From the NCBI GenBank assembly GCA_050012755.1, contig JBEKGO010000008.1:1-62626 (forward strand): 62,626 nt of DNA, read 5' to 3'. Positions within the stretch are counted from its first letter, which is position 1, and every line of letters starts with the position of its first letter. Below, piece by piece: positions 16,006-33,857 of this stretch. A program made the translations under genes and the position numbers. This DNA is from Candidatus Bathyarchaeia archaeon. GTDB taxonomy: Archaea > Thermoproteota > Bathyarchaeia > Bathyarchaeales > Bathycorpusculaceae. Below the pieces are notes generated by a model, which was not told where the DNA came from, made no database searches, and saw only the letters and a program-made list of their open reading frames with translations.

Positions 16006-16317
16006 CTCCGATAAACCCCTGCGGCGAATTCTTCTATGCCCTGTAGAAATATATAAGCTTGCGCAAGTCATACGGTCTCTATTTAGTCTCTAAAGAATTA
16101 TCACATCTGTCTTTTTTTCCAATAACGACAGTCTTAACCTTTACAGTTAACCCTGTATACTCGTTTTCGATACTATCTATAGTATACCTTCCTTCCTACT
16201 CCAGTAACCTACATGAAATGTATATGCTGAACCGAGTAAACACTTTTTTGTCCTTTTGGGAGTAGTTTTATCCAGCCTATCCTTCCCAAACATGAAATTA
16301 GCAAGCCTTGGTTTGTT

Positions 16318-16334
16318 GGATTAAATTTTAATCT
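16318..16334. repeat. Palindromic element copy 1 (GGATTAAATTTTAATCT), overlapping the stop codon of the upstream-pointing gene
   Basis: 16/17 match to GGATTAAATTTTAATCC; preceded by TTTGTT. Confidence 0.8.
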
Positions 16335-17721
16335 GTTTTTTCTTTCTAATGAGATAAAGCGAAACTGCCACTATTGAGATTATCGCGACCGCTACGACAA
16401 GAAGTGAAACACTAACTATTCCAAAACCGGAAGTCGGTTGTTGACTTTGCGTGGGGACCTCCCCAGTTGCTTGTTGCAAACTCAACGACGAAACGCCTGT
16501 TGTTGCCAACTGCAGGCTTTGCGCATCTATTTCTGTTACTCGATAAATCCCCCAACCGGCTGGGAACGTCCATGTTCGAACCACATCGTTGGTAGCGTTA
16601 ACTTCAACGATAATCGCGCCTGTTTGGTTGGTTCGGTCTTGTTGGCCGAATTCATGGTCTGGGTCTCCGAACACTGCTAGCCTATCTCCATTGGGCAAAA
16701 TATCAGCGCTTCCCCAATACTGTGTCCAATATGACGTGGGTGCTTCCCAACTCCAGATTTCCCGGGCGGTCATGTTCTGCATGTCCAACGAAATCTCCAG
16801 TATTCTACTGTGTGCATCTAAGGGGTTGGTTTCATTGTGAAAATCATTGTCAAACATTATGAAGATCCCTGGGGCAACTTGAGTAGTGTCATGGCTGTGG
16901 TACCACAAGCTGGAAACCGTGTTCCCCTGTGCATTTACCAAGGTAAAGTTGCCAAACTGACCACATGCCCACATTATGTTGCCTGATGTTTGGTTTATCG
17001 CGTAGAAGGTGTTTGTGTGCCGCAAGTTCAAGTAGATGAGGCTGTCGTTGTAGTCCCATTGAAGGGCATTTGCGTGGGTGAAGTCCACCACGGTTTGTCC
17101 GTTGACTACTGCGGTGTCATTGAAGGGATCTGCCTCGGTGAGAGGTATGTTGCCGTAAGTATCCCAACTCCACAGTATGCTTCCCGTAGCGTTCAGCTCG
17201 TCGACTGTGTCGAAGAGGTAGTTGGTTCCGTTGACGTTTCGCACGTAGTCCCGGAGTGCAAGGAAGGTGTTGTTGACGGGGTCATAACAGAGGTCATGAT
17301 GGCCGTAAACATTGGGAAAATAGGTTGTTTCGTTTGACGCAAAATTCCAGAAAAACGATTCGCTTGCCGCGTTATTGCTTTGAACCATGAGAGTGTCGGG
17401 CGCGATGTACTTGACGGAATTCGCATAACTCGCTATTGGACCAGTTGCTTCCAATAAATTAAGAGCCTGAGTGTTATCGGTTTGCATGACCACTAAGTAA
17501 CTCGCAACAACCTGTTGTAAGTTGCTGGAATTGTATTGGGACACACCGAATGCTATCTCGCCGTTCCAAGCGTTTCCCGTTGTGTCAATTGTGCAGGGCA
17601 CCTCGAAACCGGCAGAGGCTGCGGAATAGCCGATTGGAACTCCCGCTAAAATGGCAAGACAGGCAATAAGCGCAACCGCTTCCAGGAGAATCAGACTTCT
17701 GTTTCTTCTCGACTCAAACAT
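16321..17721 (-). CDS. Secreted, membrane-anchored arylsulfotransferase (ASST)-like beta-propeller protein
   Basis: Signal peptide, GHHD, DFTHANAL, LNLRHTN, YHSHD, MFDN, WGSADILPNGD, IYR; C-terminal TM plus basic tail. Confidence 0.8.
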   Translation of the reverse strand: MFESRRNRSLILLEAVALIACLAILAGVPIGYSAASAGFEVPCTIDTTGNAWNGEIAFGVSQYNSSNLQQVVASYLVVMQTDNTQALNLLEATGPIASYANSVKYIAPDTLMVQSNNAASESFFWNFASNETTYFPNVYGHHDLCYDPVNNTFLALRDYVRNVNGTNYLFDTVDELNATGSILWSWDTYGNIPLTEADPFNDTAVVNGQTVVDFTHANALQWDYNDSLIYLNLRHTNTFYAINQTSGNIMWACGQFGNFTLVNAQGNTVSSLWYHSHDTTQVAPGIFIMFDNDFHNETNPLDAHSRILEISLDMQNMTAREIWSWEAPTSYWTQYWGSADILPNGDRLAVFGDPDHEFGQQDRTNQTGAIIVEVNATNDVVRTWTFPAGWGIYRVTEIDAQSLQLATTGVSSLSLQQATGEVPTQSQQPTSGFGIVSVSLLVVAVAIISIVAVSLYLIRKKKQIKI

Positions 17722-17915
17722 GTGACCACGGTAGCTTTAGTAAACGATGATATTCTTTGCCCTTCAGCGCGCGTTTAGTATATATTTGTTTGCCGTAATT
17801 TCGCCCGAATCCGGCGAACTTTGGTTGAAAAGGAGCATGCTTCACCCTTCTCAGCTAAAATTAGGTATGAAACCGGGTATAATTTTAAGAAACTCCTTGA
17901 TGTCCTTTGCACCAT

Positions 17916-18077
17916 ATGGAAAAGAAACAAGACCGTTTGCAAGCAAGGCTTACCAGAAACCTGATGAGGAAAAGCTCCCTCGATATTGAAATCAACAAAG
18001 AATTTGAAGAACTTAAAATGATCGAGATTGCAGCGGAAATCAGTTCCCAGCAACCGAATTTTGAGAAAAAAGGATAG
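17916..18077 (+). CDS. Small hypothetical helical protein (53 aa, MEKKQDRLQARLTRNLMRKS...)
   Basis: Hand-translated ORF with an AT-rich TATA-like element upstream. Confidence 0.3.
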   Translation: MEKKQDRLQARLTRNLMRKSSLDIEINKEFEELKMIEIAAEISSQQPNFEKKG

Positions 18078-18165
18078 AGGTTTGATTACCTCTTGGTTCT
18101 GTGAGCGCGCGTGCGAGGATAAATCCAGTCGGGACACACCATAGTCTCGAATGCTTCAATTTTGG

Positions 18166-18340
18166 TTAGATAGCTGCTAGTCTTGGTATCCACTCTTTTC
18201 TTTCGTGCCTAAGGTTCTTCGCGAAAAGCAGTGCTTCTTCGCTAATCAATTCATCAATGGTTTGTTTAATTCCATGCTTGATTCTTGCAACGTCAACCTG
18301 CGGTCAAAGAAACGTTTAAGTTTTCGGCTAAGCTGACAGC
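18166..18340 (-). pseudogene. cas1: 3' remnant of solo Cas1/casposase-like gene (copy A, frameshifted at its 5' end)
   Basis: Translates QVDVARIKHGIKQTIDELISEEALLFAKNLRHERKEWIPRLAAI*, matching the C-terminus I recall for archaeal solo Cas1. Confidence 0.7.
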
Positions 18341-18508
18341 CTAGCAGAAGGCTTGAATGGTCTTTTTGACAGCATAGTTGACGTTGAAAGAATTAAACAC
18401 GGCAAAAGACAGACAATTGATACTCTGATAAATGAAGAAGCTTTGTTATTTGGGAAGTATCTGAGAAACGAAAAGAAAGAATGGATTCCAAGACTTTCAG
18501 CTATCTAA
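18332..18508 (+). pseudogene. cas1: 3' remnant of solo Cas1/casposase-like gene (copy B)
   Basis: Translates ADSLAEGLNGLFDSIVDVERIKHGKRQTIDTLINEEALLFGKYLRNEKKEWIPRLSAI*; in-frame stop just upstream, no catalytic domain. Confidence 0.72.
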
Positions 18509-18574
18509 TTTTTTCTTAATATCGTTATACAAGTTATGAATATTTTAAATATTAGCTAAAGCAAAAACAATCTT

Positions 18575-19123
18575 ATGGCTAAAGTAAATATTATTCCCAA
18601 AAAATGGAAAGTATTTATGGCTTCAATATTCATAACAATTTTCCTTTTTGTAAGCATTTTGATAATAGGTGCATGGCATCTTGAAGGCGTAAAAAACTTT
18701 TATATGAACGAAAGTTCTGAACCAACATTCTCTTTTTTTCAAATAACAACTACAGGCTCAAACTATTTTTTTCCTAATGGAATAGCGCACTTCTCTTTAT
18801 CCAATCCGTACTCTGATGAAATTAAAGATTTTCATTTCTATGTATCGTTTGACAATCAATCATGGGTTGAACTTCCAGTATCAAATACAACCAATTATGT
18901 CCAAGCAGGAGAAACTCCAGTAGGTATGGATATTAATGTTTTTACTATGTCAACTTTTCCAAGCCAAAACACGACATTGCCAATTAACAGTAGTTTCCAA
19001 TTTAGTTTCTTTATATCTCCCATTATGACACCTGAAACAATCGTGATTATGATTGTACTTATTATTGCAATATTTTCGTTTACTTTACAGATTTTAGAAT
19101 ACATCTTTTTAAAAGGCTCTTAG
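18575..19123 (+). CDS. Hypothetical membrane protein (two TM helices flanking an extracellular domain), AT-rich
   Basis: 182-aa ORF with N- and C-terminal hydrophobic helices and N-X-S/T sequons. Confidence 0.7.
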   Translation: MAKVNIIPKKWKVFMASIFITIFLFVSILIIGAWHLEGVKNFYMNESSEPTFSFFQITTTGSNYFFPNGIAHFSLSNPYSDEIKDFHFYVSFDNQSWVELPVSNTTNYVQAGETPVGMDINVFTMSTFPSQNTTLPINSSFQFSFFISPIMTPETIVIMIVLIIAIFSFTLQILEYIFLKGS

Positions 19124-19129
19124 TCTTTG

Positions 19130-19250
19130 CTTATTGTTATTCTGTTACTATCTGTTATGGTTACTGTTACTGTTGGGAGAGGATGAGAGTGTGACACAGA
19201 GGCAGAGACGCAGAGAGAGACAGAGACAGACCATATGCACACACACAAGC
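19130..19250. repeat. Low-complexity tract: TGTTA(C/T) repeats, then (CAGAGA)n and (CA)n
   Basis: Read directly from the sequence; lies just inside palindrome copy 2. Confidence 0.75.
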
Positions 19251-19266
19251 AAGGGTAGGCGTGCAC

Positions 19267-19300
19267 GTTTGGGTTTGGGGATTAAAATTTAATCCACAAA
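19267..19300. repeat. Palindromic element copy 2, full consensus GTTTGGGTTTGGGGATTAAAATTTAATCCACAAA
   Basis: Perfect 8-1-8 palindrome at 19279-19295; 29/29 reverse-complement identity to 31142-31170. Confidence 0.92.
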
Positions 19301-19380
19301 AGAAGAAAAAAGAAATACTGGAAAGCCAATATTAATAATGTCTTCAATCATTAATTATAAAAATAGGATTTGATTTTGAA

Positions 19381-19821
19381 ATGTCTTGGTTGAAAGGTAT
19401 GAGAGAGAAAGAGCCACCCGAACCAGTCAACCCAATTGGAACAGTTGTGATGGGTACTCTTCACCCAGACATAATGGACACTGCCAAGGAAATGGTCAGA
19501 AAATCGCTCAAGACTGCTCAATTTAAAACTGTAGACGTAGGGAAAGGGGTTTCTCCGACAACTTTTGCTTCAAAGGCAAAAGAAGCAAATGCCGACATCA
19601 TAGTGGTCACTATTGGTCTTTCTGCTGCTAAGGAGAACCTTCCAAAGTTAGTCTCTGCCATAGAACTTGAAGGGCTAAAAGGCAAAGTCGTCGTCATGAT
19701 AGGTGGTGCTGCCGTGACCAAAGAAGACGCAGACAGAATAGGGGCACTGTTTGGCAAAACAAGGGAAGAAGCTGTAGCACTGGCAAAGAAAGCAATGGAG
19801 CAAAAACGGAATAAGACCTGA
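19381..19821 (+). CDS. Stand-alone cobalamin-binding-fold (corrinoid-like) protein lacking the His ligand
   Basis: VVMGT...DVGKGVSP...VMIGGAAVT...IGA typical of B12-binding domains; DxHxxG reads DIMDTA. Confidence 0.8.
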   Translation: MSWLKGMREKEPPEPVNPIGTVVMGTLHPDIMDTAKEMVRKSLKTAQFKTVDVGKGVSPTTFASKAKEANADIIVVTIGLSAAKENLPKLVSAIELEGLKGKVVVMIGGAAVTKEDADRIGALFGKTREEAVALAKKAMEQKRNKT

Positions 19822-19952
19822 TGTACTCCAACAATTAGTTTCTCTTTTTCTGTAATAAGTAGTTCACAAACTTGACTATTGCCTTGTGTGTAGTTTTTCT
19901 CACTCAAGCCACAGTTTTTACTGAGACTGCGGTTGCCGTGAATACACACACA

Positions 19953-19969
19953 AGATTAGATTTTAATCC
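19953..19969. repeat. Palindromic element copy 3, degenerate (AGATTAGATTTTAATCC)
   Basis: 15/17 match; preceded by ACACACACAAG as near copy 2; 30 bp from the tRNA-Val 3' end. Confidence 0.65.
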
Positions 19970-19998
19970 TCATATGTTTACATTTTGTAAATTCGAGG

Positions 19999-20073
19999 TG
20001 GGCCGAGCCGGAGTTGAACCGGCGACCTTTGGCGTGTAAAGCCAACGTCCTAACCAGGCTAGACGATCGGCCC
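19999..20073 (-). tRNA. tRNA-Val(TAC)
   Basis: GGGCCGA/TCGGCCC acceptor stem, TTGGC-TTTACAC-GCCAA anticodon arm, GGTTCAACTCC T-arm. Confidence 0.96.
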
Positions 20074-20235
20074 GCACATTTTGCTATTCTGCAGCTTAAT
20101 TTAAGCTGTTTGGATTTATGAATTACATTCGGTTAATATTAGAATTTTGTTTCTCAATTTTTACAAGAATTTGCATTAAGAATCCCGCATATCAAAAAGA
20201 AAAGCATGACGCTTGGTGCAAAAAAAGCATCGGGA

Positions 20236-20574
20236 CTATTTGTGTTCGAGCAGAATGTCTGTTCCTTCAACTTTGACAGTGTAAGTCTTTGCATCGTTGA
20301 TTTTAGGATGCATAAAAAGAATTTTTGGAGGAGAAACCACTTTTCCATTCGTTACGTCAAACTTCGATTTATGTTTAGGGCAAGTTACAACGTTTCCTTC
20401 TAACATGCCTTTTGAAAGATTTCCGCCTTGATGAGTGCAAATGTTTCCTATAGCGTAATATGCGCCGTTTACATTTGCGATTAAAACTTCTTCTGCCCCA
20501 AATTTGACAGCTTTCATTTGCCCCGATGGTATTTCTTTTGTTTCAGCGACTTTTTCAAAAACCATTTTTTTCAC
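20236..20574 (-). CDS. Rieske-type [2Fe-2S] ferredoxin
   Basis: CTHQGG...CPKHKSKFD. Confidence 0.92.
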   Translation of the reverse strand: MKKMVFEKVAETKEIPSGQMKAVKFGAEEVLIANVNGAYYAIGNICTHQGGNLSKGMLEGNVVTCPKHKSKFDVTNGKVVSPPKILFMHPKINDAKTYTVKVEGTDILLEHK

Positions 20575-20581
20575 CTCTTGA

Positions 20582-21235
20582 CTAATTGCTTATTGCTGGA
20601 GCTTCATGCAGATATTTCATTTCTGTTATTTGCTTAAGCATAAAATCTGCAATGTCTGCTCGGCTGATCTGTGTTGCCACTTCTCCTGAGCCAACGTAGC
20701 CAGCTTTTACTTTTCCAGATTTCGGCTTATTATTTAAAATTGCTAGCCGCACAATTGTCCAATCAAGATCTGATGCACGGACGGTTTCAGCCACGTTAAC
20801 TATATCCTCGTAGGCTGCATGCATAGTGGTTTTTACAAGATTCACCATAGCTTTGGTTTTGAAGTTTGGTTTGTCTTTTGTGTCTTTGGCGCTCAAAGTA
20901 GATGTTATGATTAGTCTGCGCACGTTTTGTTTCTTCATAGCGACAATAATATTCTGCATTCCCTGGGTAAGCGGCTTATCTTTTGAGCCTCCCCGCGGAC
21001 CCAACGCGCTCAAAACTGCACTGGATCCTTTTACAGCACTTTCAACTAACCCCACGTCAGACAATTGGCCCTGAACAACCGTTAAATGCTCGTTACTAAC
21101 GTTGAGTTTAGAGGGATTACGTGCAAAAGCAACAACTTCATATCCCATTTCCAGTGCCTGCTCAGTAATTTTTTTGCCAGTCTCTCCAGTTGCTCCAAAA
21201 ACTGTAATTTTCAAAAAATCGTCTCCTTTGAGCAT
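20582..21235 (-). CDS. NAD(P)H-binding flavin reductase / biliverdin reductase B-like atypical SDR
   Basis: VFGATGETG, SDLDWTIVR, ISRADIADFML. Confidence 0.88.
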   Translation of the reverse strand: MLKGDDFLKITVFGATGETGKKITEQALEMGYEVVAFARNPSKLNVSNEHLTVVQGQLSDVGLVESAVKGSSAVLSALGPRGGSKDKPLTQGMQNIIVAMKKQNVRRLIITSTLSAKDTKDKPNFKTKAMVNLVKTTMHAAYEDIVNVAETVRASDLDWTIVRLAILNNKPKSGKVKAGYVGSGEVATQISRADIADFMLKQITEMKYLHEAPAISN

Positions 21236-21414
21236 TGGCTATCTTACTTTCTATATGACCCCAATTAACCCTCTGTAACTGCAATATTTATATTTTATTC
21301 AAATATATCGGGTCAGATAATATATGTGGTATTTTTAACCATCAAAGAATCAGCGCAATATCTTTACATTTGGTGATAGGGCTTAATTTATATATCAAAC
21401 CAACCTAATTTTTT

Positions 21415-21885
21415 GTGGTGATGTTTTTGGCCTCTCAAAAACTCTTAGAATTTTTAAACAAAGGCATAGCCCGTGAACTCCAAGTCAGCATACAATACAT
21501 GTGGCAGCACGTTCAAGTCACAGGCACGGACGGCACCATTGTAGAAGATATTTTCCGCAAAACTGCCATCGCCGAAATGAAACATGCCGAACGCCTTGCA
21601 GAACGGCTTGACTACCTAGACGGCGTACCCACAACCAAACCAGACCCGATTTTCGTCACAGGCAGCCTAATCGAAATGCTAAAACAAAACGAGCAAGATG
21701 AAGAAAAAGCCATAAACCTCTACAAACAGGCAATTCAACTCGCAGCGCAAGAAGGCGATTACACAACAAGACGGCTACTTGAAGAAATTCTTGCTGAAGA
21801 AGAGAATCATATCAATACTTTCGGAAAACTCCTCGTCGGTATGACTGAACCGTTTACTCAGCCGGGAATATCCAAAATAGAATAG
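21415..21885 (+). CDS. Bacterioferritin-like / ferritin-like di-iron protein
   Basis: ELQVSIQYMWQH, EMKHAE, EEKAI, EEENH. Confidence 0.88.
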   Translation: MVMFLASQKLLEFLNKGIARELQVSIQYMWQHVQVTGTDGTIVEDIFRKTAIAEMKHAERLAERLDYLDGVPTTKPDPIFVTGSLIEMLKQNEQDEEKAINLYKQAIQLAAQEGDYTTRRLLEEILAEEENHINTFGKLLVGMTEPFTQPGISKIE

Positions 21886-21999
21886 ACAAAAGTTGCCGCT
21901 CGACGCGGTTCCAAAAAGAAATCTTAAAACACTAAAGGCTCCCACGCTTACGTTCTAGCAATACACATATATCAATGTGCAAAGAATGGTCTTCCTTCG

Positions 22000-23814
22000 A
22001 TGGTGCTAGCTTTGGATAGTCCTGCTTCTTTAAGATGCCCCGTTTGTGGAATAGAGATAGACACCGAAAACCCTGTTGCAGGGGTCCAAGTAGCATGTGA
22101 TAGTTTTGGCGGCAAAAAAATCTGTTTCTGCAGTGAAAACTGCCGACGCCACTTCCAAGAAGACCCTCGAATTGCTTATTTCTCTATGGAAATAGGCGTA
22201 TCCAATAGCATGCCGACCTACAGCGGAGGCTTAGGCGTCTTAGCAGGGGACATAGTGAAGTCTAGTGCTGACCTGCGCCTACAGATGGTTGCCATCACCC
22301 TCGCAAGCAGAAAAGGCTACTTTAGACAAAAAATAACCGGGCAAGGGGAACAACTTGAGTTCCCAGACGAATGGGACCCTGCAAAAACCCTTAGCCGAAT
22401 GCCCAACACAGTTACAGTGAGTATTGAAGGGCGCCCAGTTCAAGTCCAAGCTTGGCTGTATGAGTACCAGAGCATCACAGGCGGAATGGTTCCAATCCTC
22501 TTTTTGGATACAGACATTGAGGGAAATGCTCCTGAAGACAGAAGGATCACAGATTCACTGTACGGCGGCGACAAAGCCTACAGATTAAAACAAGAGATAG
22601 TTTTGGGAATTGCAGGTACGCGGTTGCTGAAGAAACTGCCTTTCAAAATTAGAAAGTACCATATGAATGAAGGCCACTCCAGCCTTTTAACGCTTGAATT
22701 GCTGAAAGAGAACGGCATGGATTCAGAGAAAGTTCGAAACCTCTGTGTGTTCACAACACATAGCCCCGTAGAAGCGGCATTTGACCAATTCTCATATGAC
22801 CTTGTAAAACAGGTTTTAGGAAACGAATATTCGCGGGCAGATATGGAACAATATGCTGGAACAGAAAATCTAAACATGGCTTTTCTGGCAGTAAACTTAA
22901 GTAAATACATTAACGGGGTTTCCATGGCGCATGTGGATTTCTCGAGAAAACTGTTTCCAGGAAGATACATCAGAGCAGTCACTAACGGAGTTCACTCTTT
23001 CACATGGACGAACGTTTATTTCAGACAACTCTTTGACAAATACATTCCAGGCTGGACTAACGAACCTATTCTGCTTGCAAAAGCAAGCGAAATTCCCAAC
23101 AGAGAAGTATGGGATGCACACACTAAAGCAAAAGCGAACCTGCTTGCTTACGTTGAAAAAGCCAACGGAGTAACGTTAGATCCAGAAGCGCTCACGATTG
23201 GTTTCGCTAGAAGAGCTACAGGATACAAACGTTCCACTTTGATTTTCTCTGACTTGCACAGGTTAGCTGACATTAATCGGAAAGAAAAAATCCAAATGAT
23301 TTTTGCTGGAAAAGCACATCCGAAAGATACCGACGGCAAGCAACTTATAAAACAAATCCATGACTACGCAAATAAACTGAAAGACCAAATCAGCATAGTT
23401 TACTTGGAAAACTACAATATGGATATTGCAGCCAAACTTACCTCGGGAGTTGATGTGTGGCTTAACACTCCTTTGCCACCTCTGGAAGCATCTGGAACCA
23501 GCGGCATGAAAGCAGCTCACAATGGCGTTGTAAATTTTAGTGTTCTGGATGGTTGGTGGATGGAAGGCTGCATCGAAGGCGTGACTGGCTGGGCGATAGG
23601 TCCTCATCCCAAAGAACTGCTGGTCGAAAGCGAAAGAAGAGAGTTAGAACTCCAAGACCTTTACAGCAAACTCGAATATCTGATCATCCCCACATTCTAT
23701 ACACAGAAGGACGCTTGGATAACTCTTATGAAAAACTCTATTGCAAAAATAGCCTATTATTTCCAGACTCAATGGGTTGTGCGCAGATACATCACTGAAG
23801 CCTACCTCATCTGA
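22000..23814 (+). CDS. glgP: Alpha-glucan phosphorylase with N-terminal YHS/TRASH-like domain
   Basis: YFSMEIG, YSGGLGVLAGD, HMNEGH, GFARRATGYKR, EASGTSGMKA; N-terminal CPVCG...FCSENC. Confidence 0.93.
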   Translation: MVLALDSPASLRCPVCGIEIDTENPVAGVQVACDSFGGKKICFCSENCRRHFQEDPRIAYFSMEIGVSNSMPTYSGGLGVLAGDIVKSSADLRLQMVAITLASRKGYFRQKITGQGEQLEFPDEWDPAKTLSRMPNTVTVSIEGRPVQVQAWLYEYQSITGGMVPILFLDTDIEGNAPEDRRITDSLYGGDKAYRLKQEIVLGIAGTRLLKKLPFKIRKYHMNEGHSSLLTLELLKENGMDSEKVRNLCVFTTHSPVEAAFDQFSYDLVKQVLGNEYSRADMEQYAGTENLNMAFLAVNLSKYINGVSMAHVDFSRKLFPGRYIRAVTNGVHSFTWTNVYFRQLFDKYIPGWTNEPILLAKASEIPNREVWDAHTKAKANLLAYVEKANGVTLDPEALTIGFARRATGYKRSTLIFSDLHRLADINRKEKIQMIFAGKAHPKDTDGKQLIKQIHDYANKLKDQISIVYLENYNMDIAAKLTSGVDVWLNTPLPPLEASGTSGMKAAHNGVVNFSVLDGWWMEGCIEGVTGWAIGPHPKELLVESERRELELQDLYSKLEYLIIPTFYTQKDAWITLMKNSIAKIAYYFQTQWVVRRYITEAYLI

Positions 23815-25431: not shown

Positions 25432-25448
25432 CCAACTTTGCCTTCTAC

Positions 25449-27156: not shown

Positions 27157-27531
27157 ATGATGAGTAAACCTGAAGTATCCATCACATATGAACCTTTTAA
27201 AAAAATTGTAATTATGGAAAAAACTTTTTTCAACACGCCTGAAGACATCGCACGATTCACATCGGTGATAGCAGGCGGCAAACTAGCAGGGTTGTACTGG
27301 GTTGAAGGCGTTGTCTTCCTGTATTTTCCTCTTCCCGCTTCAACGGCTGTTGTGGCTAAAGAACTCTTAGAAAGCAGCAAGGTTTACTGGACTTTTGTCG
27401 GTTACTCGCTTATGCCGAAATATGCGCAGACGATTGAAACTAAAGAAAAAATGATTGTGCCTGTCGTTGATATATCAAATGATCCTGTCTTAGGCAGAGT
27501 AGCTGAATGGCTAAAAGAACAAAAACATTAA
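27157..27531 (+). CDS. Conserved archaeal hypothetical protein
   Basis: Clean ORF divergent from ino1 and co-oriented with ribK. Confidence 0.7.
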   Translation: MMSKPEVSITYEPFKKIVIMEKTFFNTPEDIARFTSVIAGGKLAGLYWVEGVVFLYFPLPASTAVVAKELLESSKVYWTFVGYSLMPKYAQTIETKEKMIVPVVDISNDPVLGRVAEWLKEQKH

Positions 27532-27541
27532 AGGCACCTTT

Positions 27542-27928
27542 TTGGCAACGCTGAGTTTTAGAGGTAAAGTTTACACTGGCAAGGGCGAAGGCAAAAAATT
27601 CGTAACCCTACCTTGGGTTGAAAGGCAAATGAGGGAAAAGCTTGGTTTTACTCCCTACGGCGGCACACTGAACATTCGGCTGAGCAGGGAAAGTGTGGCA
27701 CTAAAAAAGAAGCTTGACAAAGCTTCGCACCTTGAAATTGTTCCTGAGAAAGGCTATTGTAAAGCCACAATGATTAGGGCAAAAATTACTGGGTTAGACT
27801 GTGCCATTATTATTCCACAGGTTCCAGCGTATCCGCCTGATGTGATGGAGGTTATTTCGCCTTTTTTCTTGCGTCATCGATTGCATTTGGCGGATGGCAG
27901 TGAAGCGGCTGTTACTTTGAGTCTTTGA
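27542..27928 (+). CDS. ribK: CTP-dependent riboflavin kinase (no HTH domain)
   Basis: GKVYTGKGEGKKF, KLGFTPYGGTLN, EVISPFFLRHRLHLADG. Confidence 0.88.
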   Translation: MATLSFRGKVYTGKGEGKKFVTLPWVERQMREKLGFTPYGGTLNIRLSRESVALKKKLDKASHLEIVPEKGYCKATMIRAKITGLDCAIIIPQVPAYPPDVMEVISPFFLRHRLHLADGSEAAVTLSL

Positions 27929-29426
27929 CGCTGGCTTTTTTGTGTGCTGCAATGTATTCGTCTAGGCAATTGTTCTTTTTGAGGTAGAATCCATAGGTTA
28001 CGAGGGCTTTCATGGCTCTGGCTGCATCTTCGGGAGAGGGGTATGAGGGGACGCCGAGCTTGTCAAATCTTGAGCGGGTGTAAAGCGCCATTTCTGTTTC
28101 TCCAATATCGCACATGACTATGGGTTTACTGTAGCTTTCGGCGATTTTGGCTATGCCGTCTATGTATACCTCTCGGAGCCCTGGCATGTGATGAAGCCCA
28201 AGAAGGATTATGCCGCAGACCTGTGGGTCCTGGAACATCAAGTCACCAGCCATAACAAACATGTCATCAATCACTGAACCGGTGAGGTCCACGGGGTTTG
28301 AAGTAGCTGCAATTTTTAAGATGATATTTTGATCTTTTAGTTCTTGGAATTTCTGCAAGGTCTCCTCGGAGAAGCGCTCCACCGTTAACCCTAAAGCTTC
28401 ACACTCGTCAACGGTCATGACGCCTGGTCCGCCGGCGTCAGTGAGTATGGCGATGTTTTTGCCCGTGGCTGGGGGCTGCATGGCTAAGGCTTTTCCCATG
28501 TCAAAAAACTCCTCCATATCTCTCGCTCTTATCACACCCCCCTGATTGAATGCGGCGTCATAAATTTTGTCTGAACCTGCAATCGCGCCTGTATGTGAAG
28601 CTGCGGCTCTTGCGCCTGCAGCGCTTTTGCCCGATTTAATGACTACGACGGGTTTTTTGACGGTTACTTTTTTGGCTATTCTTAAGAATTCTCTTCCGTC
28701 TCTGATGTCTTCTAAATACGCAAGGGTGACTTTGGTTTCTTTATCATGAAGCAAATAATGAAGGATGTCAGTTTCGTTTACGTCGCATTTGTTGCCGAAA
28801 CTAACGAATTTGCTAACGCCCATCTGTCTTCCAGTCAAATAATCTAATGCCGCAACTCCAAAGGCTCCACTTTGGGTAATCATGGCTATGTTGCCTGGCA
28901 TCGGCCTTGGCGTAGCTACTACGTCTTCCCCCGTTGTGAGAACTTTTGTTTCCGGGAGAAACAGCGTGTCAATTCCATTTTTCGAATAATACACTCCTAG
29001 GCAGTTCGGTCCTAAAACACGTATTCCGCCTCTTTTAGCCGCTGCCACAACTTGCTCTTCAAGATCTGCGTTTCCAACTTCTCTGAAGCCTGAGCTAATT
29101 ATGATGGCAGCTTTGACTTTTTTGGTTACAGCTTCCTCCATGATGCCGGGCACAGCTGTGGCGGGAACAATAACGACAATTAACTCGACTTCGCTTGGAA
29201 TATTACTTAGCGAGTGGTAACATTTGAATCCTAAAATTGAATCTTCACCTGGGTTGACCGGGTAGAGTTCTCCTTTGAAAACGCCGTGTTCTTTGTTAGT
29301 TGCAAAATTTTTGAAAATGACATGGCCTGCTTTATCCACTTTTTTTGTAGCGCCGATGACTGCTACTGAATGTGGGTTGAAGAATGCGTTAAGTTTCTGT
29401 GTGGCTTCTTCCATAACTGTTTTCAC
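27912..29426 (-). CDS. acdA: Acetate/acyl-CoA ligase (ADP-forming) alpha subunit
   Basis: FFNPHSVAVIGA, LGPNCLG, TQSGAFG, AASHTGAIAG phospho-His, TDAGGPG, NPVDLTG. Confidence 0.92.
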   Translation of the reverse strand: MKTVMEEATQKLNAFFNPHSVAVIGATKKVDKAGHVIFKNFATNKEHGVFKGELYPVNPGEDSILGFKCYHSLSNIPSEVELIVVIVPATAVPGIMEEAVTKKVKAAIIISSGFREVGNADLEEQVVAAAKRGGIRVLGPNCLGVYYSKNGIDTLFLPETKVLTTGEDVVATPRPMPGNIAMITQSGAFGVAALDYLTGRQMGVSKFVSFGNKCDVNETDILHYLLHDKETKVTLAYLEDIRDGREFLRIAKKVTVKKPVVVIKSGKSAAGARAAASHTGAIAGSDKIYDAAFNQGGVIRARDMEEFFDMGKALAMQPPATGKNIAILTDAGGPGVMTVDECEALGLTVERFSEETLQKFQELKDQNIILKIAATSNPVDLTGSVIDDMFVMAGDLMFQDPQVCGIILLGLHHMPGLREVYIDGIAKIAESYSKPIVMCDIGETEMALYTRSRFDKLGVPSYPSPEDAARAMKALVTYGFYLKKNNCLDEYIAAHKKASVKDSK

Positions 29427-29489
29427 CGTTTCCGCTATGAGCGTTCAAGCCAAGTTTTTATGTTTTGCTATACTCAAAGGTTCTTTCAA

Positions 29490-30365
29490 TTAAACTATTA
29501 TTTGTTTCTTTTTGCCATCGTTGAGCCAATTTTTTCTAACAATAACCAAAGGTTTATGCTTGATTTTGGAAAGCATTTCCCAACTCACCCCGTTAACGTC
29601 CACTTGAAACCTTGCCGCCATATCCCAAACTGTGGCGCCTGACCCTGGTCCTCTGGCTTTGTCGGCTATGTTGGTGATGGTTAATGCTTCGTCCGCCTGA
29701 AGATTGCAGCCTGCAACTGCCAGCGGCGTTGAACTCTTTTTGAAATTTAAAACCCGACCAAGGATGTACGTAGCTGTTCCGCCAAAGGAATGTATGCCTC
29801 TAAATGGTTCTGGTCTTGGAGTAAAAAAGAAGTTCCTGAACCTGTAAGTTTTATCTGTGTCAGCGATAATGACACAAACGTCTTTCTGCATTTTCACTTG
29901 AATTTCTTTTTGAATTTTTTTAGCTATTTCGTCAGCATTTGTTAGTGGCAAACTCACGAAGGCATAGGGTAGGTTGGATCCGTCGATTCCTCCTTCCGAA
30001 CCAAACATGAGCGTTTGCCAAAAACCCGCATATTGAAGAGCTACTTGTTTGTGGCGGCTGCCAGACTCTAGCGGATATTCCTTTAGCCTGTGCAGTAGGC
30101 GTGGTCCAAAGTGGCTTAATATTCCAAAAGGATAACCCCAGCCGAATCGCATCCAAAAATGGGCGATAAGCCTTGCATTCAGGTTTGGTTGTATTTTGCT
30201 TTCATCAACCATGCAGCCTAAAGCTGTTGAAATTGCCTTCTCTGAAACAACAACATAATCGCAATTTTCAATTTTGCCACATAGAGCGCTTGTTATTTTG
30301 TCGATGTAGTTGTCGCCGGGTTTCCAGTAACTGGTTGTTAACGCCAATGCAGAGTACTTGGTCAT
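29490..30365 (-). CDS. CofE-like (F420:gamma-glutamyl ligase family) protein
   Basis: VVSEKAIS, GGIDGSNLP, IIADTDKT. Confidence 0.75.
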   Translation of the reverse strand: MTKYSALALTTSYWKPGDNYIDKITSALCGKIENCDYVVVSEKAISTALGCMVDESKIQPNLNARLIAHFWMRFGWGYPFGILSHFGPRLLHRLKEYPLESGSRHKQVALQYAGFWQTLMFGSEGGIDGSNLPYAFVSLPLTNADEIAKKIQKEIQVKMQKDVCVIIADTDKTYRFRNFFFTPRPEPFRGIHSFGGTATYILGRVLNFKKSSTPLAVAGCNLQADEALTITNIADKARGPGSGATVWDMAARFQVDVNGVSWEMLSKIKHKPLVIVRKNWLNDGKKKQIIV

Positions 30366-30445
30366 CAGCTGGGCACTTTCATAGATTCAGTTCTGCTCAG
30401 CCTTAATAAGACTAATTTCTGTCTCCTAAACCTCAGGTTTTTCGC

Positions 30446-30468
30446 TTTGTGGATTAAATTTTAATCCC
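30446..30468. repeat. Palindromic element copy 4 (TTTGTGGATTAAATTTTAATCCC)
   Basis: Perfect palindrome at 30451-30467; 23/23 reverse-complement identity to 19278-19300. Confidence 0.9.
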
Positions 30469-30593
30469 ATCCAACTTCTCTGTTACAGGCAAGACAAACA
30501 GAAACTTGGCTATCGATTTGCAAATAAATGGAATTCCCTGCGAATAAGCAAATTTTATATAACGGGCCAGTTTAAGAAAAAAGATAGGTAAAC

Positions 30594-31016
30594 TTGAAAA
30601 TCGGGCAGAAAAAAATGGTTCTCTCCAGAAACGTCACTATACTTGCCATAGTGATGATTTTGAACGTCGTGATAATCATCCTCTTAACTCCACTCGGCTT
30701 TGAGACCCGCCCGATATCCGCCTTGAAGACGCTCGGCTACATCGCGATTACTACCATTTTTGTCGGTCTCGCATTGGACCTGGCGTCAATCGGCCTTCTC
30801 TTCAAGAGAGTTAGAGTTAGATTAGCTTCGAGTCTGGCAATCGTCAGCTCGGTCCTCTTCTTCCTGATAATTTTCGTGGATCGAACCGGGTCTTTCTTCT
30901 CCGTGCCGATCCCTCCTGCAATTAATACCCTCGAATACATTTTCATTGTCGTACTGATTGTAACTCTCTTATCGGCGTTTATGGTCTACAGAGGGAATAA
31001 ACCTGCTTCAAGCTGA
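30594..31016 (+). CDS. Hypothetical 4-TM membrane protein
   Basis: Four hydrophobic helices; lies alone between palindrome copies 4 and 5. Confidence 0.75.
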   Translation: MKIGQKKMVLSRNVTILAIVMILNVVIIILLTPLGFETRPISALKTLGYIAITTIFVGLALDLASIGLLFKRVRVRLASSLAIVSSVLFFLIIFVDRTGSFFSVPIPPAINTLEYIFIVVLIVTLLSAFMVYRGNKPASS

Positions 31017-31141
31017 AGATAAATGGGAAATAACTGATTGCATTTACGTTTAATGTGTTGAAGAGTTTAGTAAATGCGATCTAACTTAATTGATGAACGC
31101 ATCAAGGATAGAATGCTAACGGCGTTTCTTTTTGGTTGGTC

Positions 31142-31170
31142 GGATTAAATTTTAATCCCCAAACCCAAAC
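31142..31170. repeat. Palindromic element copy 5 (GGATTAAATTTTAATCCCCAAACCCAAAC)
   Basis: Exact reverse complement of 19267-19295. Confidence 0.92.
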
Positions 31171-31358
31171 TACGATTGATTAACTAACTATTATTCTCCC
31201 TCTCATATTTTCTCAGTTAGACTCACAGACAGACTCAGACAGAACCAAATATGGAGGTCTTTTTCAAGAGTTTCCGTTAAGTAAGCAAACCTTGACTAAA
31301 GTCAGTCAAGAGACCTTTACGAGAAGCCTTTTATTGAAAACTAGTTGCAGATATAATC

Positions 31359-33749
31359 ATGGAAAGCAAGAGTAAGAGTTTTGCATTATTTCTTATTCTG
31401 ATCATGGTCATCTCAAGTATATTTCTCTTTGAAACTCTACCTTTAGGATCAGCTCAAAGTGGAACAAACGTAACAGGTGTTATAACCTCAGATACCACTT
31501 GGACAAGAACGAACAGTCCATACAATCTCACTTCACCCGTGATTGTTAATTATGGTACAACTTTAACGTTGCAACCTGGTGCAACTGTGAACCTCAACGG
31601 CTACAACCTGCAAGTAAACGGGATTCTACAATCACTAGGCAGCAACGATAACAACATAGTTTTTGACTCTTCTGGGGGAAATGTTGTCTTGACAGCAAGC
31701 AGTTCAAGCTGGAACGAACAAGCAAACACAGGATGCATAATCGAAAATTCAGTGTTCAACAATGCCTCGGTATCCGTCAGTAACGCAGCACCAAAGATAA
31801 ACAACAACACCATCAACAACATAGGAAGTGAAAACGGAGCTATTTACATGGAAAGCGGCGCCCCCATAATCTCAGACAACAACATCAATGGAGACATCCA
31901 GTGTTTAGATGATGCATCTCCCACCATAACCAACAACTTTATTCATGGAGGAATAAGTGGCGAAGGCTTTGATCTATCTGCACCCGTGATTATTAACAAC
32001 ACCATTGAAAGCGGAACAGGCCAGATGGTGCCAGGCTCAGGAATCTATGATGACGGAAGCAACTACTATGTAGCCAACAACACTATTTTCGGCTGTGCAA
32101 CAGGAATAGATGTTGAAGATGGCATATCAACAATCATTGGAAACTTGATTGTTAACAACACGGATGGAATTTACTTAGGAAGAGGGGTGTCAACGATTCT
32201 GCACAATACCATCTCCAACAACACTGTTGGGCTTGGTGGTTCTGAAAATGCAGGTTCGGTTGCTTATAATGATCTCGTAAGCAACTTAAAATACACCTTA
32301 AGCGGAAATTTAACATTTAATTGGTGGGGAACAACTAACCAACAAACAATCGCCCAGACACTGCCCAGTTCAGCCACCTTCGTTCCCTTCCTTACTGCAC
32401 CAGACCCCGCTGCTCCAGCAATTCCTAGTCAAAACCCAGCGCCTTATCCAACTCCAACACCGAGTCCTTATCCAACACCTACTCCTTCTCCAACTCCATC
32501 ACCAATTGCAACGCCGACTCCAACTCCTTCCCAAACACCCACTCAAAGTGGCACAAACGTGAGTTACATAATATACTCGGACACTACCTGGACCCAGGCA
32601 AACAGTCCATATAATTTCACTGGAAATGTCCTTGTGAACCAGGGAGTTACCTTAACAATAGGCACCGATGCTATAGTCGACCTAAACAACTATTACTTAA
32701 GAGTTAATGGTACAGTAATAGTTCAACCCGGCGCAACTATTAACATGGGACTCATAGGAGATGGCATAGACGTTTATGGCACCTTGCGCGCAGAGGGCAC
32801 AAGCACAAACCCAATTCACATAAACGGCAGCGAACAAAGTCACATTATTGTAGCCTTCTTTTCCGCCATTACCTTCTTCCCATCCAGCACAAACTGGAAC
32901 CAACAAACCAATTCAGGCTCACTCATAGAAAACGTAATTTTTAGCAGCACCGAATTTGAAATACAAAGCGGAATAAAAATCAGCGACAACACTTTTCTCA
33001 GCGGAGAATTAACCGTAGAACAAGGTTCACCCACGATTATAAACAACAATATTTCAACTGGACTCAGCATTATTCAAAACCCTAACCTTCCATATAACGC
33101 CACTGGAGTGCAACCTGAAATTTCAAATAATACCATTACGGGGGGCCTCTCAGTTGACGCTGGAAGCGGAATCGTTACTGACAATATTATTTATGGCATA
33201 ACTATAAACGATGGATACGGATCGCCTGTTTCAACTTTAATTGAACGTAATTTGATAACTAATGCTACAACGGGAATTTCATGTGACATACAAAGCGCCA
33301 ACAACAACAAAGTAATTATCGAGAACAACACAGTCACCAATAATTCTGTGGGAATTCAGATAGGAAGCCCACAGGTGCCAACGATAATAGACAACAACAT
33401 TTATGGGAATTCTTATAACGCAAAACTTTCAGAATCCTCAGAAATTGGTCTCCCCAATAATTGGTGGGGTACAACCGATGTTCAAGCAATCAACCAAACT
33501 ATTTATGACATCAAATATGACTTTAACTTAGGCACAATAAACTTCTTACCTATCTTGATTGCACCAAACCCACAAGCTACTCCTAATCAAACAGTTCCAA
33601 ACCCGAGTCCAACTCCTTCCCCAACATCCACCTCAATTCCAGAATCTCCGCAAGTCCCCGCCTTTGCCTTTGCATTTCTTGTTACAGTAATCTTAGTTGG
33701 AACAACTTTGATCAGGAAAAGGCAACCTAAAAAATTAAAACATAGTTAA
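31359..33749 (+). CDS. Cell-surface glycoprotein with two parallel beta-helix (NosD/pectin-lyase-like) modules, PT-rich linker and C-terminal IPE-TM-basic anchor
   Basis: Signal peptide; QSGTNV..SDTTWT..NSPYN and NWWGTT each occur twice; (PT/PS)n linker; IPE plus TM plus RKRQPKK. Confidence 0.85.
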   Translation: MESKSKSFALFLILIMVISSIFLFETLPLGSAQSGTNVTGVITSDTTWTRTNSPYNLTSPVIVNYGTTLTLQPGATVNLNGYNLQVNGILQSLGSNDNNIVFDSSGGNVVLTASSSSWNEQANTGCIIENSVFNNASVSVSNAAPKINNNTINNIGSENGAIYMESGAPIISDNNINGDIQCLDDASPTITNNFIHGGISGEGFDLSAPVIINNTIESGTGQMVPGSGIYDDGSNYYVANNTIFGCATGIDVEDGISTIIGNLIVNNTDGIYLGRGVSTILHNTISNNTVGLGGSENAGSVAYNDLVSNLKYTLSGNLTFNWWGTTNQQTIAQTLPSSATFVPFLTAPDPAAPAIPSQNPAPYPTPTPSPYPTPTPSPTPSPIATPTPTPSQTPTQSGTNVSYIIYSDTTWTQANSPYNFTGNVLVNQGVTLTIGTDAIVDLNNYYLRVNGTVIVQPGATINMGLIGDGIDVYGTLRAEGTSTNPIHINGSEQSHIIVAFFSAITFFPSSTNWNQQTNSGSLIENVIFSSTEFEIQSGIKISDNTFLSGELTVEQGSPTIINNNISTGLSIIQNPNLPYNATGVQPEISNNTITGGLSVDAGSGIVTDNIIYGITINDGYGSPVSTLIERNLITNATTGISCDIQSANNNKVIIENNTVTNNSVGIQIGSPQVPTIIDNNIYGNSYNAKLSESSEIGLPNNWWGTTDVQAINQTIYDIKYDFNLGTINFLPILIAPNPQATPNQTVPNPSPTPSPTSTSIPESPQVPAFAFAFLVTVILVGTTLIRKRQPKKLKHS

Positions 33750-33830
33750 TTCTGGCTTCTGGTTTTCATCGCAAACTTAGAATAAATTGCATTGCTCAAA
33801 AATTCTTAGTCAGCGAAAAACCAACAGTCA

Positions 33831-33857
33831 GTTTGGGTTTGGTGATTAAGTTTTACC
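33831..33857. repeat. Palindromic element copy 6, degenerate (GTTTGGGTTTGGTGATTAAGTTTTACC)
   Basis: First 19 nt match copy 2 at 18 positions; distal half decayed. Confidence 0.7.

Follow-up and report, generated by a model that had tools for sequence, protein, structure and literature searches.

Casposons are the closest system that we can name for the gene cassettes described here, especially the tandem family 2 of Methanosarcina. The portions of the casposon literature drawn on here report terminal inverted repeats, 14-15-bp target-site duplications, solo terminal inverted repeats, tandem copies with a single shared duplication between them, and integration that requires a C-terminal HTH domain (PMC4779613; PMC6977970). 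Judged against those portions, our arrays share with casposons the terminal inverted repeats, a putatively duplicated target of 14-15 bp, neighbours separated by one common target copy, solo ends, copies in decay, a Cas1 extended at its C terminus and an insertion beside a tRNA 3' end. They differ in that the cassettes lack a polymerase and cas1 (as read from the cassette genes), measure 0.5-10 kb and carry ordinary accessory genes, with joints that can number 30 or more in a genome and arrays of up to 11. The presumed target is also a perfect palindrome, and the arms are microsatellite-like and of several classes. The Cas1 concerned is likened to casposase through its best solved match.

Several other systems offer partial parallels. 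CRISPR arrays have the same repeat-insert-repeat layout, a palindromic repeat and, presumably, a builder of the same Cas1 family, but where CRISPR has 26-72-bp spacers, the inserts here are 0.5-10 kb long, comprise genes or operons and have inverted ends of their own. The repeat measures 15-17 bp, the arrays lie at many loci, and no leader, Cas2 or interference genes were seen beside them. For the XerC/D dif modules on Acinetobacter plasmids, excerpts of PMC13141974 describe a similar arrangement of gene modules bounded by short recombination sites, one per joint, with the same arm type at both module ends, reshuffling between replicons and no recombinase within the module; our arrays, in contrast, are chromosomal and archaeal, with long inverted arms, a cas1 association and a symmetric 8-1-8 palindrome, whereas dif is 11-6-11 with two different arms. 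Integrons, including archaeal ones, are likewise arrays of single-gene cassettes with diverse accessory functions and imperfect palindromes between them, and clusters without an integrase are common, according to part of Ghaly et al. (2022; PMC9668308). Compared by architecture, our arrays differ in having no adjoining IntI, many loci per genome, random gene orientation and a 17-bp palindrome at both cassette ends. Finally, mobile insertion cassettes and MITE-bounded passenger elements are also non-autonomous, with inverted ends around one passenger gene, and are moved in trans, but here the elements abut exactly at the palindromic core, and we found no cognate DDE transposase whose ends match theirs.

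Palindromic sites in the window and the genus

The window is a stretch of 62,626 nt from the genome of a Candidatus Bathyarchaeia archaeon (G000). A sequence-only reading had reported six copies of a 17-base palindrome, GGATTAAAWTTTAATCC, in it. Five were recovered at ≤2 mismatches, against 0.04 expected from shuffles (0 of 100 shuffles reached five), while the sixth, near 33843, proved degenerate, with 6 of 17 core positions differing by manual count and the GTTTGGGTTTGG flank kept (88% to a 25-nt reference copy). The 29/29 inverted match between 19267-19295 and 31142-31170 was reproduced, as was the restriction of the copies to two accessory islands: all lie within 16318-33860, and housekeeping genes occupy about 20000-30400 in between. 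Across the whole assembly (2.41 Mb, 65 contigs) 30 copies were found at ≤2 mismatches, 15 of them on six contigs of 8-10.5 kb that make up 2.3% of the assembly. Among the 119 other genomes of the genus, 68 have the palindrome at ≤1 mismatch (0-29 copies each; a reversed-pattern control gave 0-1 per genome), with a distribution that looks clade-structured; of 16 genomes from the order's other genera, one has it. G068, a genome on a single contig, has 34 sites scattered over at least 10 loci. The chromosomal dif is a different site, since the palindrome is missing from 51 of 120 genomes.

Outside the core, the arms are G-poor and microsatellite-like, of classes such as (CT)n, (CA)n, (CCAAA)n, (CCAA)n and (CCA)n, some with another 100-170 nt of homology beyond. 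The base at half-site position 8 (C in 81%, T in 18%) tracks the arm class: (CT)n arms have T ahead of them and the other classes have C, which fits a 15-bp repeat plus cassette ends.

In island 1, the site at 16318-16334 (unstranded, like all sites; one mismatch, right arm T/C-rich) overlaps the stop codon of an arylsulfotransferase-like (ASST-like) cargo gene of 466 aa (16321-17721, minus strand; PF05935, E-value = 3e-23). This gene sits between the site and the cas1 remnants, and the order of site, cargo ORF and cas1 3' end is that of relatives. A 182-aa ORF without Pfam family (18575-19123, plus strand) is followed by the site at 19267-19300, with a perfect core at 19279-19295 and the left arm GTTTGGGTTTGG, and by a 146-aa B12-binding-domain cargo gene (19381-19821, plus strand), whose unit (19322-19834) is found at unlinked positions in relatives, never extending across the sites. 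The last site of the island (19953-19969, two mismatches) is separated by 28 nt from the 3' terminus of tRNA-Val (19997-20073, minus strand), the conserved right border, and homology to relatives ends there 0-13 nt beyond the tRNA. In island 2, the site at 30439-30470 (perfect core 30451-30467) is followed by a 140-aa cassette ORF without Pfam family (30594-31016, plus strand), which is found elsewhere in at least six relatives with unrelated flanks. Then follow the site at 31130-31171 (perfect core 31142-31158, right arm CCAAACCCAAAC), the 796-aa NosD-like beta-helix surface protein (31359-33749, plus strand) and the degenerate site at 33831-33859, which retains the cassette-side arm and half-core and has lost the outer half. 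Inverted arms flank the NosD-like gene, with CCAAACCCAAAC as the left and GTTTGGGTTTGG as the right arm.

Cassette modularity and breakpoints

Independently shuffled cassettes in one genus of Bathyarchaeia are joined at the palindrome. In none of 13 homologous arm pairs were the partner arms homologous as well, the two sides of a site having no common ancestry. At site 30451, the closest relative, G123, is 92.7% identical to G000 through the orthologous left flank and palindrome; the two genomes diverge at the right edge of the palindrome, with different cassettes beyond. Likewise, homology of a GNAT cassette in G055 and G059 begins or ends within the palindrome core, so that breakpoints between genomes do coincide with the motif, as the sequence-only reading had anticipated. 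In G022, and at C56 8333 compared with G055, the entire palindrome lies on one side of the breakpoint, which counts against a casposon-derived origin. In favour of that origin, the island-2 locus of eight more distant relatives is an empty spacer of 73-97 bp. The palindrome is absent from all eight at ≤3 mismatches, a further point against; the original target was thus not seen, and no target-site duplication could be read against a target-bearing empty site.

The abutting contigs C20 and C56 carry an array of 11 sites in about 12 kb. Inverted arms span 114 nt at 95.6% across C58 2638-5819, 137 nt at 80% across C56 6042-8333, and match at 14/22 across 31142-33843 of the window. They are clear in few cassettes only (mean match 7.3/22 vs 6.25 for random pairs), which again counts against. 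Cassettes range from single genes to 10-kb blocks with mutually unrelated cargo (ASST-like, B12-binding, NosD-like, GNAT, methyltransferases, radical SAM, TIR-domain, PIN/RHH, restriction-modification methylase, catalase and others); housekeeping-like genes such as pyrD/pyrK within some bracketed blocks are at odds with a casposon-derived origin.

Cas1 remnants and stand-alone Cas1

Two cas1 remnants had been claimed inside the islands. Island 1 does contain such a pair: relatives have an intact stand-alone Cas1 gene, and the 3' end of that gene is present here twice, in inverted orientation, as a 345-nt foldback. The left arm (18166-18330, minus strand) covers the last ~45 codons, and the right arm (18340-18508, plus strand) is the second copy. 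However, a Pfam Cas1 search of the whole genome (100% complete by marker genes) gave no match at E-value ≤ 1 and no intact cas1, which counts against a casposon-derived origin. The intact genes of relatives encode casposase-like proteins of 346-394 aa (Pfam E-values 1e-42 to 1e-48) with a C-terminal extension of ~60 residues, and their best solved match is 6opm_A (E-value = 4e-20), the Methanosarcina casposase; this code appears in the portion of the M. mazei casposase paper drawn on here (PMC6977970).

The cas1 remnant and the palindrome co-occur across the genus. With remnants called at E-value ≤ 1e-8, 45 of 120 genomes hold both remnant and palindrome, one the remnant only, 24 the palindrome only and 50 neither (Fisher 3e-14, in a test that treats genomes as independent of phylogeny), so that 45 of the 46 remnant-positive genomes bear the palindrome. 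CRISPR-type Cas1 shows no association (13/28 palindrome-positive, p = 0.2). A palindrome lies within 1.5 kb of 12 of 29 remnant loci, and in 10-11 of these 12 a (CT)n-class arm points toward cas1, with a common continuation that is also present at G000 sites. Against the link stand the 24 palindrome-positive genomes that are remnant-free at that cut-off, including G019 (8 sites) and G041 (15 sites, with Cas1 matches of lower score), as well as G076 and G097, where the 1.5 kb upstream of the cas1 operon contain no site, and two loci (L103 and L106) with no site at all. The disregard of shared ancestry in the Fisher test, together with the seemingly clade-structured distribution of the palindrome, weighs on the same side. 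No Cas1-bearing element delimited at both ends was found.

Explanations for the joints

That the palindrome is a regulatory element common to accessory genes (operator, bidirectional promoter or terminator) is very improbable. The AT-rich core presumably resembles an archaeal TATA-like sequence, and 80 of 81 sites are intergenic. The sites nevertheless lie between 14 convergent, 44 tandem and 13 divergent gene pairs (nine at locus edges), at 49 to 1391 nt (median 331) from the facing start and -5 to 1297 nt from the facing stop codon. Without preferred gene orientation or distance they are not operators. Unrelated genes flank them and homology breaks at them, in agreement with the sequence-only reading, which had sites delimiting unrelated genes on either side and favoured recombination ends over an operator; a fixed promoter distance, a lacking cas1 link and breakpoints elsewhere, named there as refuting, were looked for and are absent. 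We also consider it decidedly unlikely that palindrome and short arms make up a REP- or MITE-like intergenic element, small and selfish or structural, which spreads by itself and became a secondary rearrangement hot spot. The tens of nearly always intergenic, genus-restricted copies would suit it, as would the 58 extra nt (core and CA arm) that G000 has at C56 8333 within DNA otherwise collinear with G055, and the single Y1 transposase of G000, although the contig with that transposase has no site. The lack of shared two-arm ancestry (0/13) means that the site is not a unit moving as a whole, and arm matches run across cassettes, not inside sites. Mobile insertion cassettes are an unlikely explanation, too: these would be non-autonomous transposons with inverted repeats, moved by a DDE transposase whose preference for an AT-rich palindromic target, or for the ends of copies already in place, makes elements abut. 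Such cassettes are a known kind, some of ours have inverted terminal arms, dispersal over at least 10 loci in G068 would follow, and repeated hits on a duplicated target can produce arrays. However, multicopy IS of at least 1 kb are absent from G000, the sole IS5-like element carries unrelated inverted repeats, rve-type transposases do not track the palindrome (16 sites and no rve in G097, no site and seven rve in G052), DDE_Tnp_1 occurs in the palindrome-free G008, and serine recombinases are absent from G000 and G068.

Modelled on the dif modules of Acinetobacter plasmids, a crossover site for a host or trans-acting tyrosine recombinase, at which cassettes are exchanged, inverted and deleted and the cas1 remnants are mere cargo, is a possible but doubtful explanation. 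In its favour, all joints are complete palindromes with two arms around 7 bp of AT core, breakpoints lie in or at that core, partner arms assort independently, mobility genes are absent from all cassettes examined, and cassettes with same-type arms at both ends are akin to the C and D modules in the excerpts of PMC13141974. G000 moreover has 10 tyrosine-recombinase matches, at least five of them paralogous Zn-ribbon forms. Yet no recombinase lies beside the arrays in G000, G003, G002, G015, G018, G019, G068, G080 or G097, and G068, for all its sites, has four matches, none near an array. Inverted arms of 114-137 nt are unexplained by recombinase binding sites, as are the co-occurrence and adjacency of the cas1 tail and the constant (CT)n arm that faces it.

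We favour, at a probability of roughly 0.55, a casposon-derived set of polymerase-less cassettes that Cas1 inserted into a 15-bp palindromic repeat, each insertion duplicating the repeat. The integration target would be the inner 15 bp (GATTAAAWTTTAATC), which, duplicated each time, would behave like a repeat, and the G-poor arms would be the terminal inverted repeats of the cassettes. One family member in some genomes would encode the stand-alone Cas1, which would insert arm-ended DNA into the repeat, and reuse of one target would yield repeat-cassette-repeat arrays of such 0.5-10-kb inserts, built by insertion rather than by other exchange. Of the casposon-like reading first proposed from the sequence, which took casposon termini to begin with GGGGAT, the joints, breakpoints, remnants and co-occurrence held, whereas joints made by Cas1, both termini of a Cas1-bearing element, a target-site duplication and an intact cas1 were not recovered. 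With only two inverted cas1 3' fragments here, the arrays would be fossils or served by an unassembled copy. Because the palindrome travels with a stand-alone Cas1 gene, it may be part of a casposon-derived gene-capture system, resembling a CRISPR array with gene-sized inserts.

Distribution and Anatomy of the Palindrome

The 17-bp palindrome GGATTAAAWTTTAATCC is located in the window at 16318, 19279, 19953, 30451 and 31142 with 0–2 mismatches (chance expectation 0.04; five matches were reached in 0 of 100 shuffles), and a sixth copy near 33843 has a degenerate outer half and retains the GTTTGGGTTTGG arm. The six copies proposed by the sequence-only reading were therefore recovered, and the inverted match it described between 19267 and 31142 is exact (29/29). 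The wider scan that it recommended extended the motif well beyond the window. The assembly holding the window (G000; 2.41 Mb in 65 contigs, the window being the entire contig C8) bears 30 copies at ≤2 mismatches, half of these being concentrated on six short contigs with a combined 2.3% of its length, and a profile search returned 32 sites at ≥11 bits. At ≤1 mismatch, the palindrome is present in 68 of the 119 other genomes of the genus, with 0–29 copies each (0–1 for a reversed-pattern control), and in one of 16 genomes from other genera of the order. A contig scan with a strict 21-mer of the extended motif gave eight records, namely three Bathyarchaeia MAGs and five unrelated bacteria. The species itself is present in runs of 22 studies, mostly labelled as peat or wetland metagenomes. 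The 17-mer was not found in the searchable literature, which excludes supplements and subscription journals, and the eight best matches for Bathyarchaeia and transposons contained nothing on such a system.

The core has an 8-1-8 geometry with an odd centre. Across 88 sites (174 half-sites), starting at the central A/T and reading outward, the half-site is TTTAATC with C (81%) or T (18%) as the next base. Beyond it the arm is A/C-rich and depleted in G (5–14% up to about position 23, positions >12 lying outside the search model). Arms fall into microsatellite-like classes, (CCAAA)n, (CA)n, (CT)n, (CCAA)n, (CCA)n and poly-C or poly-A, and some extend as recognisable homology over 100–180 nt. Position 8 of the half-site is T ahead of (CT)n arms and C ahead of the others. 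The central A/T of adjacent sites is the same in 10 pairs and different in 8 by hand count, which is uninformative on a crossover at the centre.

Cassettes and Their Joints

Between the sites of the window lie an ASST-like gene, a gene with a B12-binding domain, a 140-aa ORF and a NosD-like surface protein, and the 10 kb separating its two islands consist of housekeeping genes. Elsewhere the cargo includes GNAT acetyltransferases, methyltransferases, radical-SAM enzymes, a TIR-domain protein, PIN/RHH, glycosyltransferases, PQQ propellers, a restriction-modification methylase, a HerA-like ATPase, catalase, OsmC and a histidine kinase, and one cassette block holds pyrD/pyrK. The smallest segment measures 0.5 kb and holds a 40-aa zinc-ribbon ORF, and the largest are multigene blocks of 10 kb. 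The abutting contigs C20 and C56 together form a single G000 array, with 11 sites over about 12 kb, and the one-contig genome G068 has 34 sites over at least 10 loci. No transposase or integrase was found within any segment examined, and a Pfam scan of roughly 100 ORFs revealed no polymerase. Two ORFs of unassigned family located between sites in G003 and G055 showed no mutual homology.

The smallest unit (G000:C56, sites 6042–6547), whose sole product is the zinc-ribbon ORF at 6394–6516, is kept at 81–92% identity in G000:C20, G055, G019, G003, G063, G009, G044 and G123, with the palindrome at the end in every copy examined. The unit of the 140-aa ORF (window 30531–31020) was also met in loci bearing no palindrome: G004 and G015 agree at 95% over 593 bp only, with unrelated flanks, and the unit follows a tRNA in G004 and G044 and adjoins a 505-aa integrase in G015.

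Comparison with relatives places breakpoints at the sites. Homologues of the C20 GNAT cassette are present in G055, in G059 (twice) and in G012 at 83–89% identity, core genes being about 75% identical; the homology stops inside the palindrome in G055 and starts inside it in G059. In G123, the closest relative (core genes 82–93% identical to G000), the left flank, left arm and palindrome of site 30451 are the same at 92.7% identity, and the two genomes part where the palindrome ends on the right, with different cassettes following. In G123 there come a 167-aa ORF and a further site, and about 830 bp then lead up to the radical-SAM gene. Units of the 140-aa ORF and the B12-binding gene occur in relatives at unlinked positions, with homology that in no case extends across the sites. 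Among homologous arm pairs, the partner arms were also homologous in 0 of 13 (a raw count with no matched control). Genome comparison thus reveals crossovers centred on the sites together with reshuffled modules, and the sites join stretches of DNA that assort independently. At two further loci (C9 38590 and C32 8090), inserts relative to relatives were seen with breakpoints that could not be placed at the sites. In metagenomic data, Logan contigs presented joints at sites with sides of only 22–28 nt, a length too short to be reliable on excision in either direction, and a scan with the left flank and core of site 30451 yielded one contig, identical to the window.

Comparison with relatives also yielded empty loci, which the sequence-only reading had suggested looking for among strains. 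In eight relatives the F420-ligase-family gene and the radical-SAM gene that border island 2 (the part of the window holding sites 30451, 31142 and ~33843) are separated by only 73–97 bp, without the motif, and the alternative fillings of this locus in G055, G003, G056, G019 and G015 contain neither the motif nor another common palindrome. The T-rich DNA running from the degenerate site to the radical-SAM stop codon (about 180 bp, window 33860–34036), which is repetitive internally, is missing from these eight empty sites as well. At this locus the empty sites are motif-free, and none with one copy of the target was found.

Concerning the cassette ends, inverted arms were detected over 114 nt at 95.6% identity in C58 (2638–5819), over 137 nt at 80% in C56 (6042–8333) and at 14/22 positions in the window (31142–33843). 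Terminal inverted repeats, the feature expected of non-autonomous casposon-derived elements, are therefore present in some cassettes. Many cassettes have nothing in common at their ends beyond the core and the arm class, and the mean end-to-end arm match is 7.3/22 versus 6.25 for random pairs. Each joint contains one copy of the 15-bp inner palindrome, as a shared duplication would give.

Several rearrangements were recorded around these loci. A 160-bp segment at G000:C9 38062–38223, with two repeats of a dyad and G-run around an AT-rich stretch, which we take to resemble origin-recognition boxes, is inverted relative to G123, G114, G120 and G055 and adjoins a roughly 1.8-kb insert holding site 38590. 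The 3′ end of tRNA-Val (window 19997–20073) is a general integration hot spot: in G123 a 9-kb element without palindromes is flanked by the tRNA on one side and by a 46-nt repeat of its 3′ part on the other, and G004 has a 45-nt partial repeat. At G123:C3 (reverse complement 1000–4460), 92 bp covering the start and promoter of the F420-ligase-family gene are duplicated around a 3.2-kb insert, which begins with a degenerate core and a (CT)n arm and encodes a 793-aa PQQ-propeller/Ig surface protein.

Stand-Alone Cas1 and Its Remnants

The two cas1 remnants reported within the islands were borne out. Specifically, a 345-nt foldback in island 1 (18164–18510; fold energy -160.7 kcal/mol, z-score -14.6) consists of two inverted copies of a cas1-tail unit (arms 18166–18297 and 18377–18508), each encoding about 45 residues up to a stop codon. 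The unit has no Rfam match, and further single copies are located in G000 at C58:3922–4087, C58:1756–1844, C32:24704–24777 and C31:7148–7223. The inverted doubling of the cas1 3′ end may belong to an inverted terminus of the element itself. The Cas1-family casposase that an autonomous casposon encodes is not encoded in G000, the window containing just the two ~45-codon 3′ fragments. The Pfam Cas1 model (PF01867) has no match in G000 at E ≤ 1, which does not refute a Cas1 link because the remnants map past the end of the Pfam domain.

An intact ORF of 329–394 aa terminates in this unit in G076, G097, G094 and G108; its Pfam Cas1 domain (E-values 1e-36 to 1e-48) stops near residue 288, leaving a C-terminal extension. 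By coordinates, the unit abuts a Cas1 match in at least 12 genomes. Intact stand-alone Cas1 genes are located at G076:C12:241583 (352 aa), G097:C34:4946, G015:C5:33063 and 452340, G087:C13:6837, G108:C1:376161 and G094:C345:8508. The best solved match of the stand-alone Cas1 is 6opm_A (E-value = 4e-20), ahead of the CRISPR Cas1 4n06 (E-value = 3e-17); the code 6OPM occurs in the available text of a paper on the Methanosarcina mazei casposase structure (PMC6977970). These genes are accompanied by a 180–200-aa ORF (one with a winged helix) and ordinary cargo, without cas operons.

The cas1-tail unit and the palindrome occur together across the genus. Of the 120 genomes, 45 with a remnant are palindrome-positive and one is negative, the corresponding counts without a remnant being 24 and 50 (Fisher test, 3e-14, shared ancestry ignored). 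A genus-wide Cas1 search gave three groups, namely CRISPR-type proteins (E-values below 1e-71), lower-scoring proteins of 316–395 aa and many C-terminal fragments. CRISPR-type Cas1 shows no association (13/28 palindrome-positive, p = 0.2), and the lower-scoring and fragment group is palindrome-positive in 21 of 25 cases (p = 0.003), both values likewise ignoring shared ancestry. Locally, a site is present within ±1.5 kb in 12 of 29 cas1-tail loci, the chance rate being estimated at a few per cent from 5–30 sites per 2–3 Mb. The cas1-tail unit is linked to the palindrome both locally and across the genus (45/46 remnant-positive genomes). Typically the 3′ end of cas1 is followed by a single cargo ORF and then a site, and the window agrees with this order (site 16318, ASST-like gene, cas1 remnant). 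The cas1-facing arm belongs to the (CT)n class in 10–11 of 12 loci, and its continuation is also found at the G000 sites C20 41520 and C32 25863. A second, upstream end of the Cas1-bearing element was looked for and not found.

Competing Explanations and Evolutionary Meaning

A regulatory role of the palindrome, as operator, promoter or terminator, would be compatible with the intergenic position of 80 of 81 sites but is contradicted by their orientation and distance spread: flanking genes are convergent in 14 cases, tandem in 44 and divergent in 13, near the 1:2:1 of random orientation, and the distance to a facing start codon varies from 49 to 1391 nt. The fixed promoter distance that would have counted against the original reading was thus not seen. 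A REP- or MITE-like unit moving as a whole is contradicted by the arm comparison, given its 0 of 13 homologous partner arms (no matched control), and a Y1 transposase/REP system was rejected, the sole Y1_Tnp of G000 being on C64, a contig without sites. DDE-type mobile insertion cassettes would likewise place cargo between ends, but no matching transposase was detected; rve, DDE_Tnp_1 and serine recombinases were discarded as the cognate enzyme, showing no association with the palindrome. An IS5-like element with two ORFs and DDE_Tnp_1 at G000:C57 811–1875 has 26-nt inverted repeats unrelated to the palindrome.

Site-specific recombination comes closer. A tyrosine recombinase acting in trans, in the style of dif modules (as described in the accessible part of PMC13141974), accounts for the joints but leaves the long arms and the cas1 association unexplained. 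At least five tyrosine recombinase paralogues are encoded in G000 (C26 61832–63163, C2 85124–86308, C34 3945–5414, C20 13969–14955 and C19 46016–46894), with a common C-terminal motif and in some an N-terminal zinc ribbon; the C19 copy looks truncated. The archaeal dif is presented in the consulted text of PMC2958812 as a single-copy 11-6-11 site, unlike the odd-centred 8-1-8 palindrome without a 6-bp spacer found here, which is not a universal dif because 51 of 120 genomes have no copy. Canonical archaeal integrons combine IntI with attC sites (PMC9668308, in the portion available), whereas here no integrase lies within 25 kb of the G000 arrays or adjoins them in eight other genomes; an integron with an adjacent integrase was accordingly rejected for the genomes checked. 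Moreover, sites occupy at least 10 loci in G068 in contrast to the single array by attI, and an Rfam search returned tRNAs only.

Casposons offer the nearest comparison. According to the sections available of PMC4779613 and PMC6977970, they carry TIRs and 14–15-bp target-site duplications, can stand in tandem with the shared duplication alone between them, leave solo TIRs, and depend for integration on a C-terminal HTH domain of the casposase. The system presented here would differ from published casposons in its dozens of short palindromic repeats per genome, its arrays of up to 11 repeats, its gene-sized inserts without polymerase and a stand-alone Cas1 whose occurrence over 120 genomes follows that of the repeats. 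In a casposon-derived system, the inner 15 bp of the palindrome would be the duplicated integration target, position 8 and the arms would belong to the cassettes and not to the target, and repeated integration into the repeat would generate arrays; the features described would then be a derived form of casposons. G000 itself lacks the enzyme. This mechanism is inferred; no integration event, no empty site bearing the target and no complete Cas1-bearing element was seen in the loci compared. The Cas1-linked cassette system first proposed from the sequence is partly backed, by inverted ends, joints, cas1 remnants and co-occurrence. We rate the elements as casposon-derived and numerous, with neither polymerase nor cas1, and as forming arrays on a palindromic repeat, and insertion of such cassettes by Cas1 is our leading explanation, at a probability of roughly 0.55.

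A more ambitious interpretation, which we advance tentatively and hold to be rather less probable, is that the genus carries a living casposon–CRISPR intermediate, in which a stand-alone Cas1 would integrate TIR-ended DNA into a 15-bp palindromic repeat, duplicating it each time, and so build arrays whose inserts are entire genes or operons. This would amount to an integron-like platform for gene capture in Archaea, driven by Cas1. Published casposon examples are few, comprising large polymerase-bearing casposons and rare tandem pairs. CRISPR arrays have been proposed, in the available text of PMC4779613, to stem from casposon ends and duplicated targets. If the interpretation is true, the step from transposon to repeat array would become directly testable, and interest in the system is high because it could open the casposon-to-CRISPR transition to such tests. 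Bathyarchaeia are abundant archaea of peat and sediment, and they would possess a dedicated route for shuffling accessory genes, such as surface proteins, defence genes, catalase and methyltransferases, among loci and species. Even if Cas1 is not the enzyme, the palindrome marks a modular system of gene exchange not described before in Archaea.
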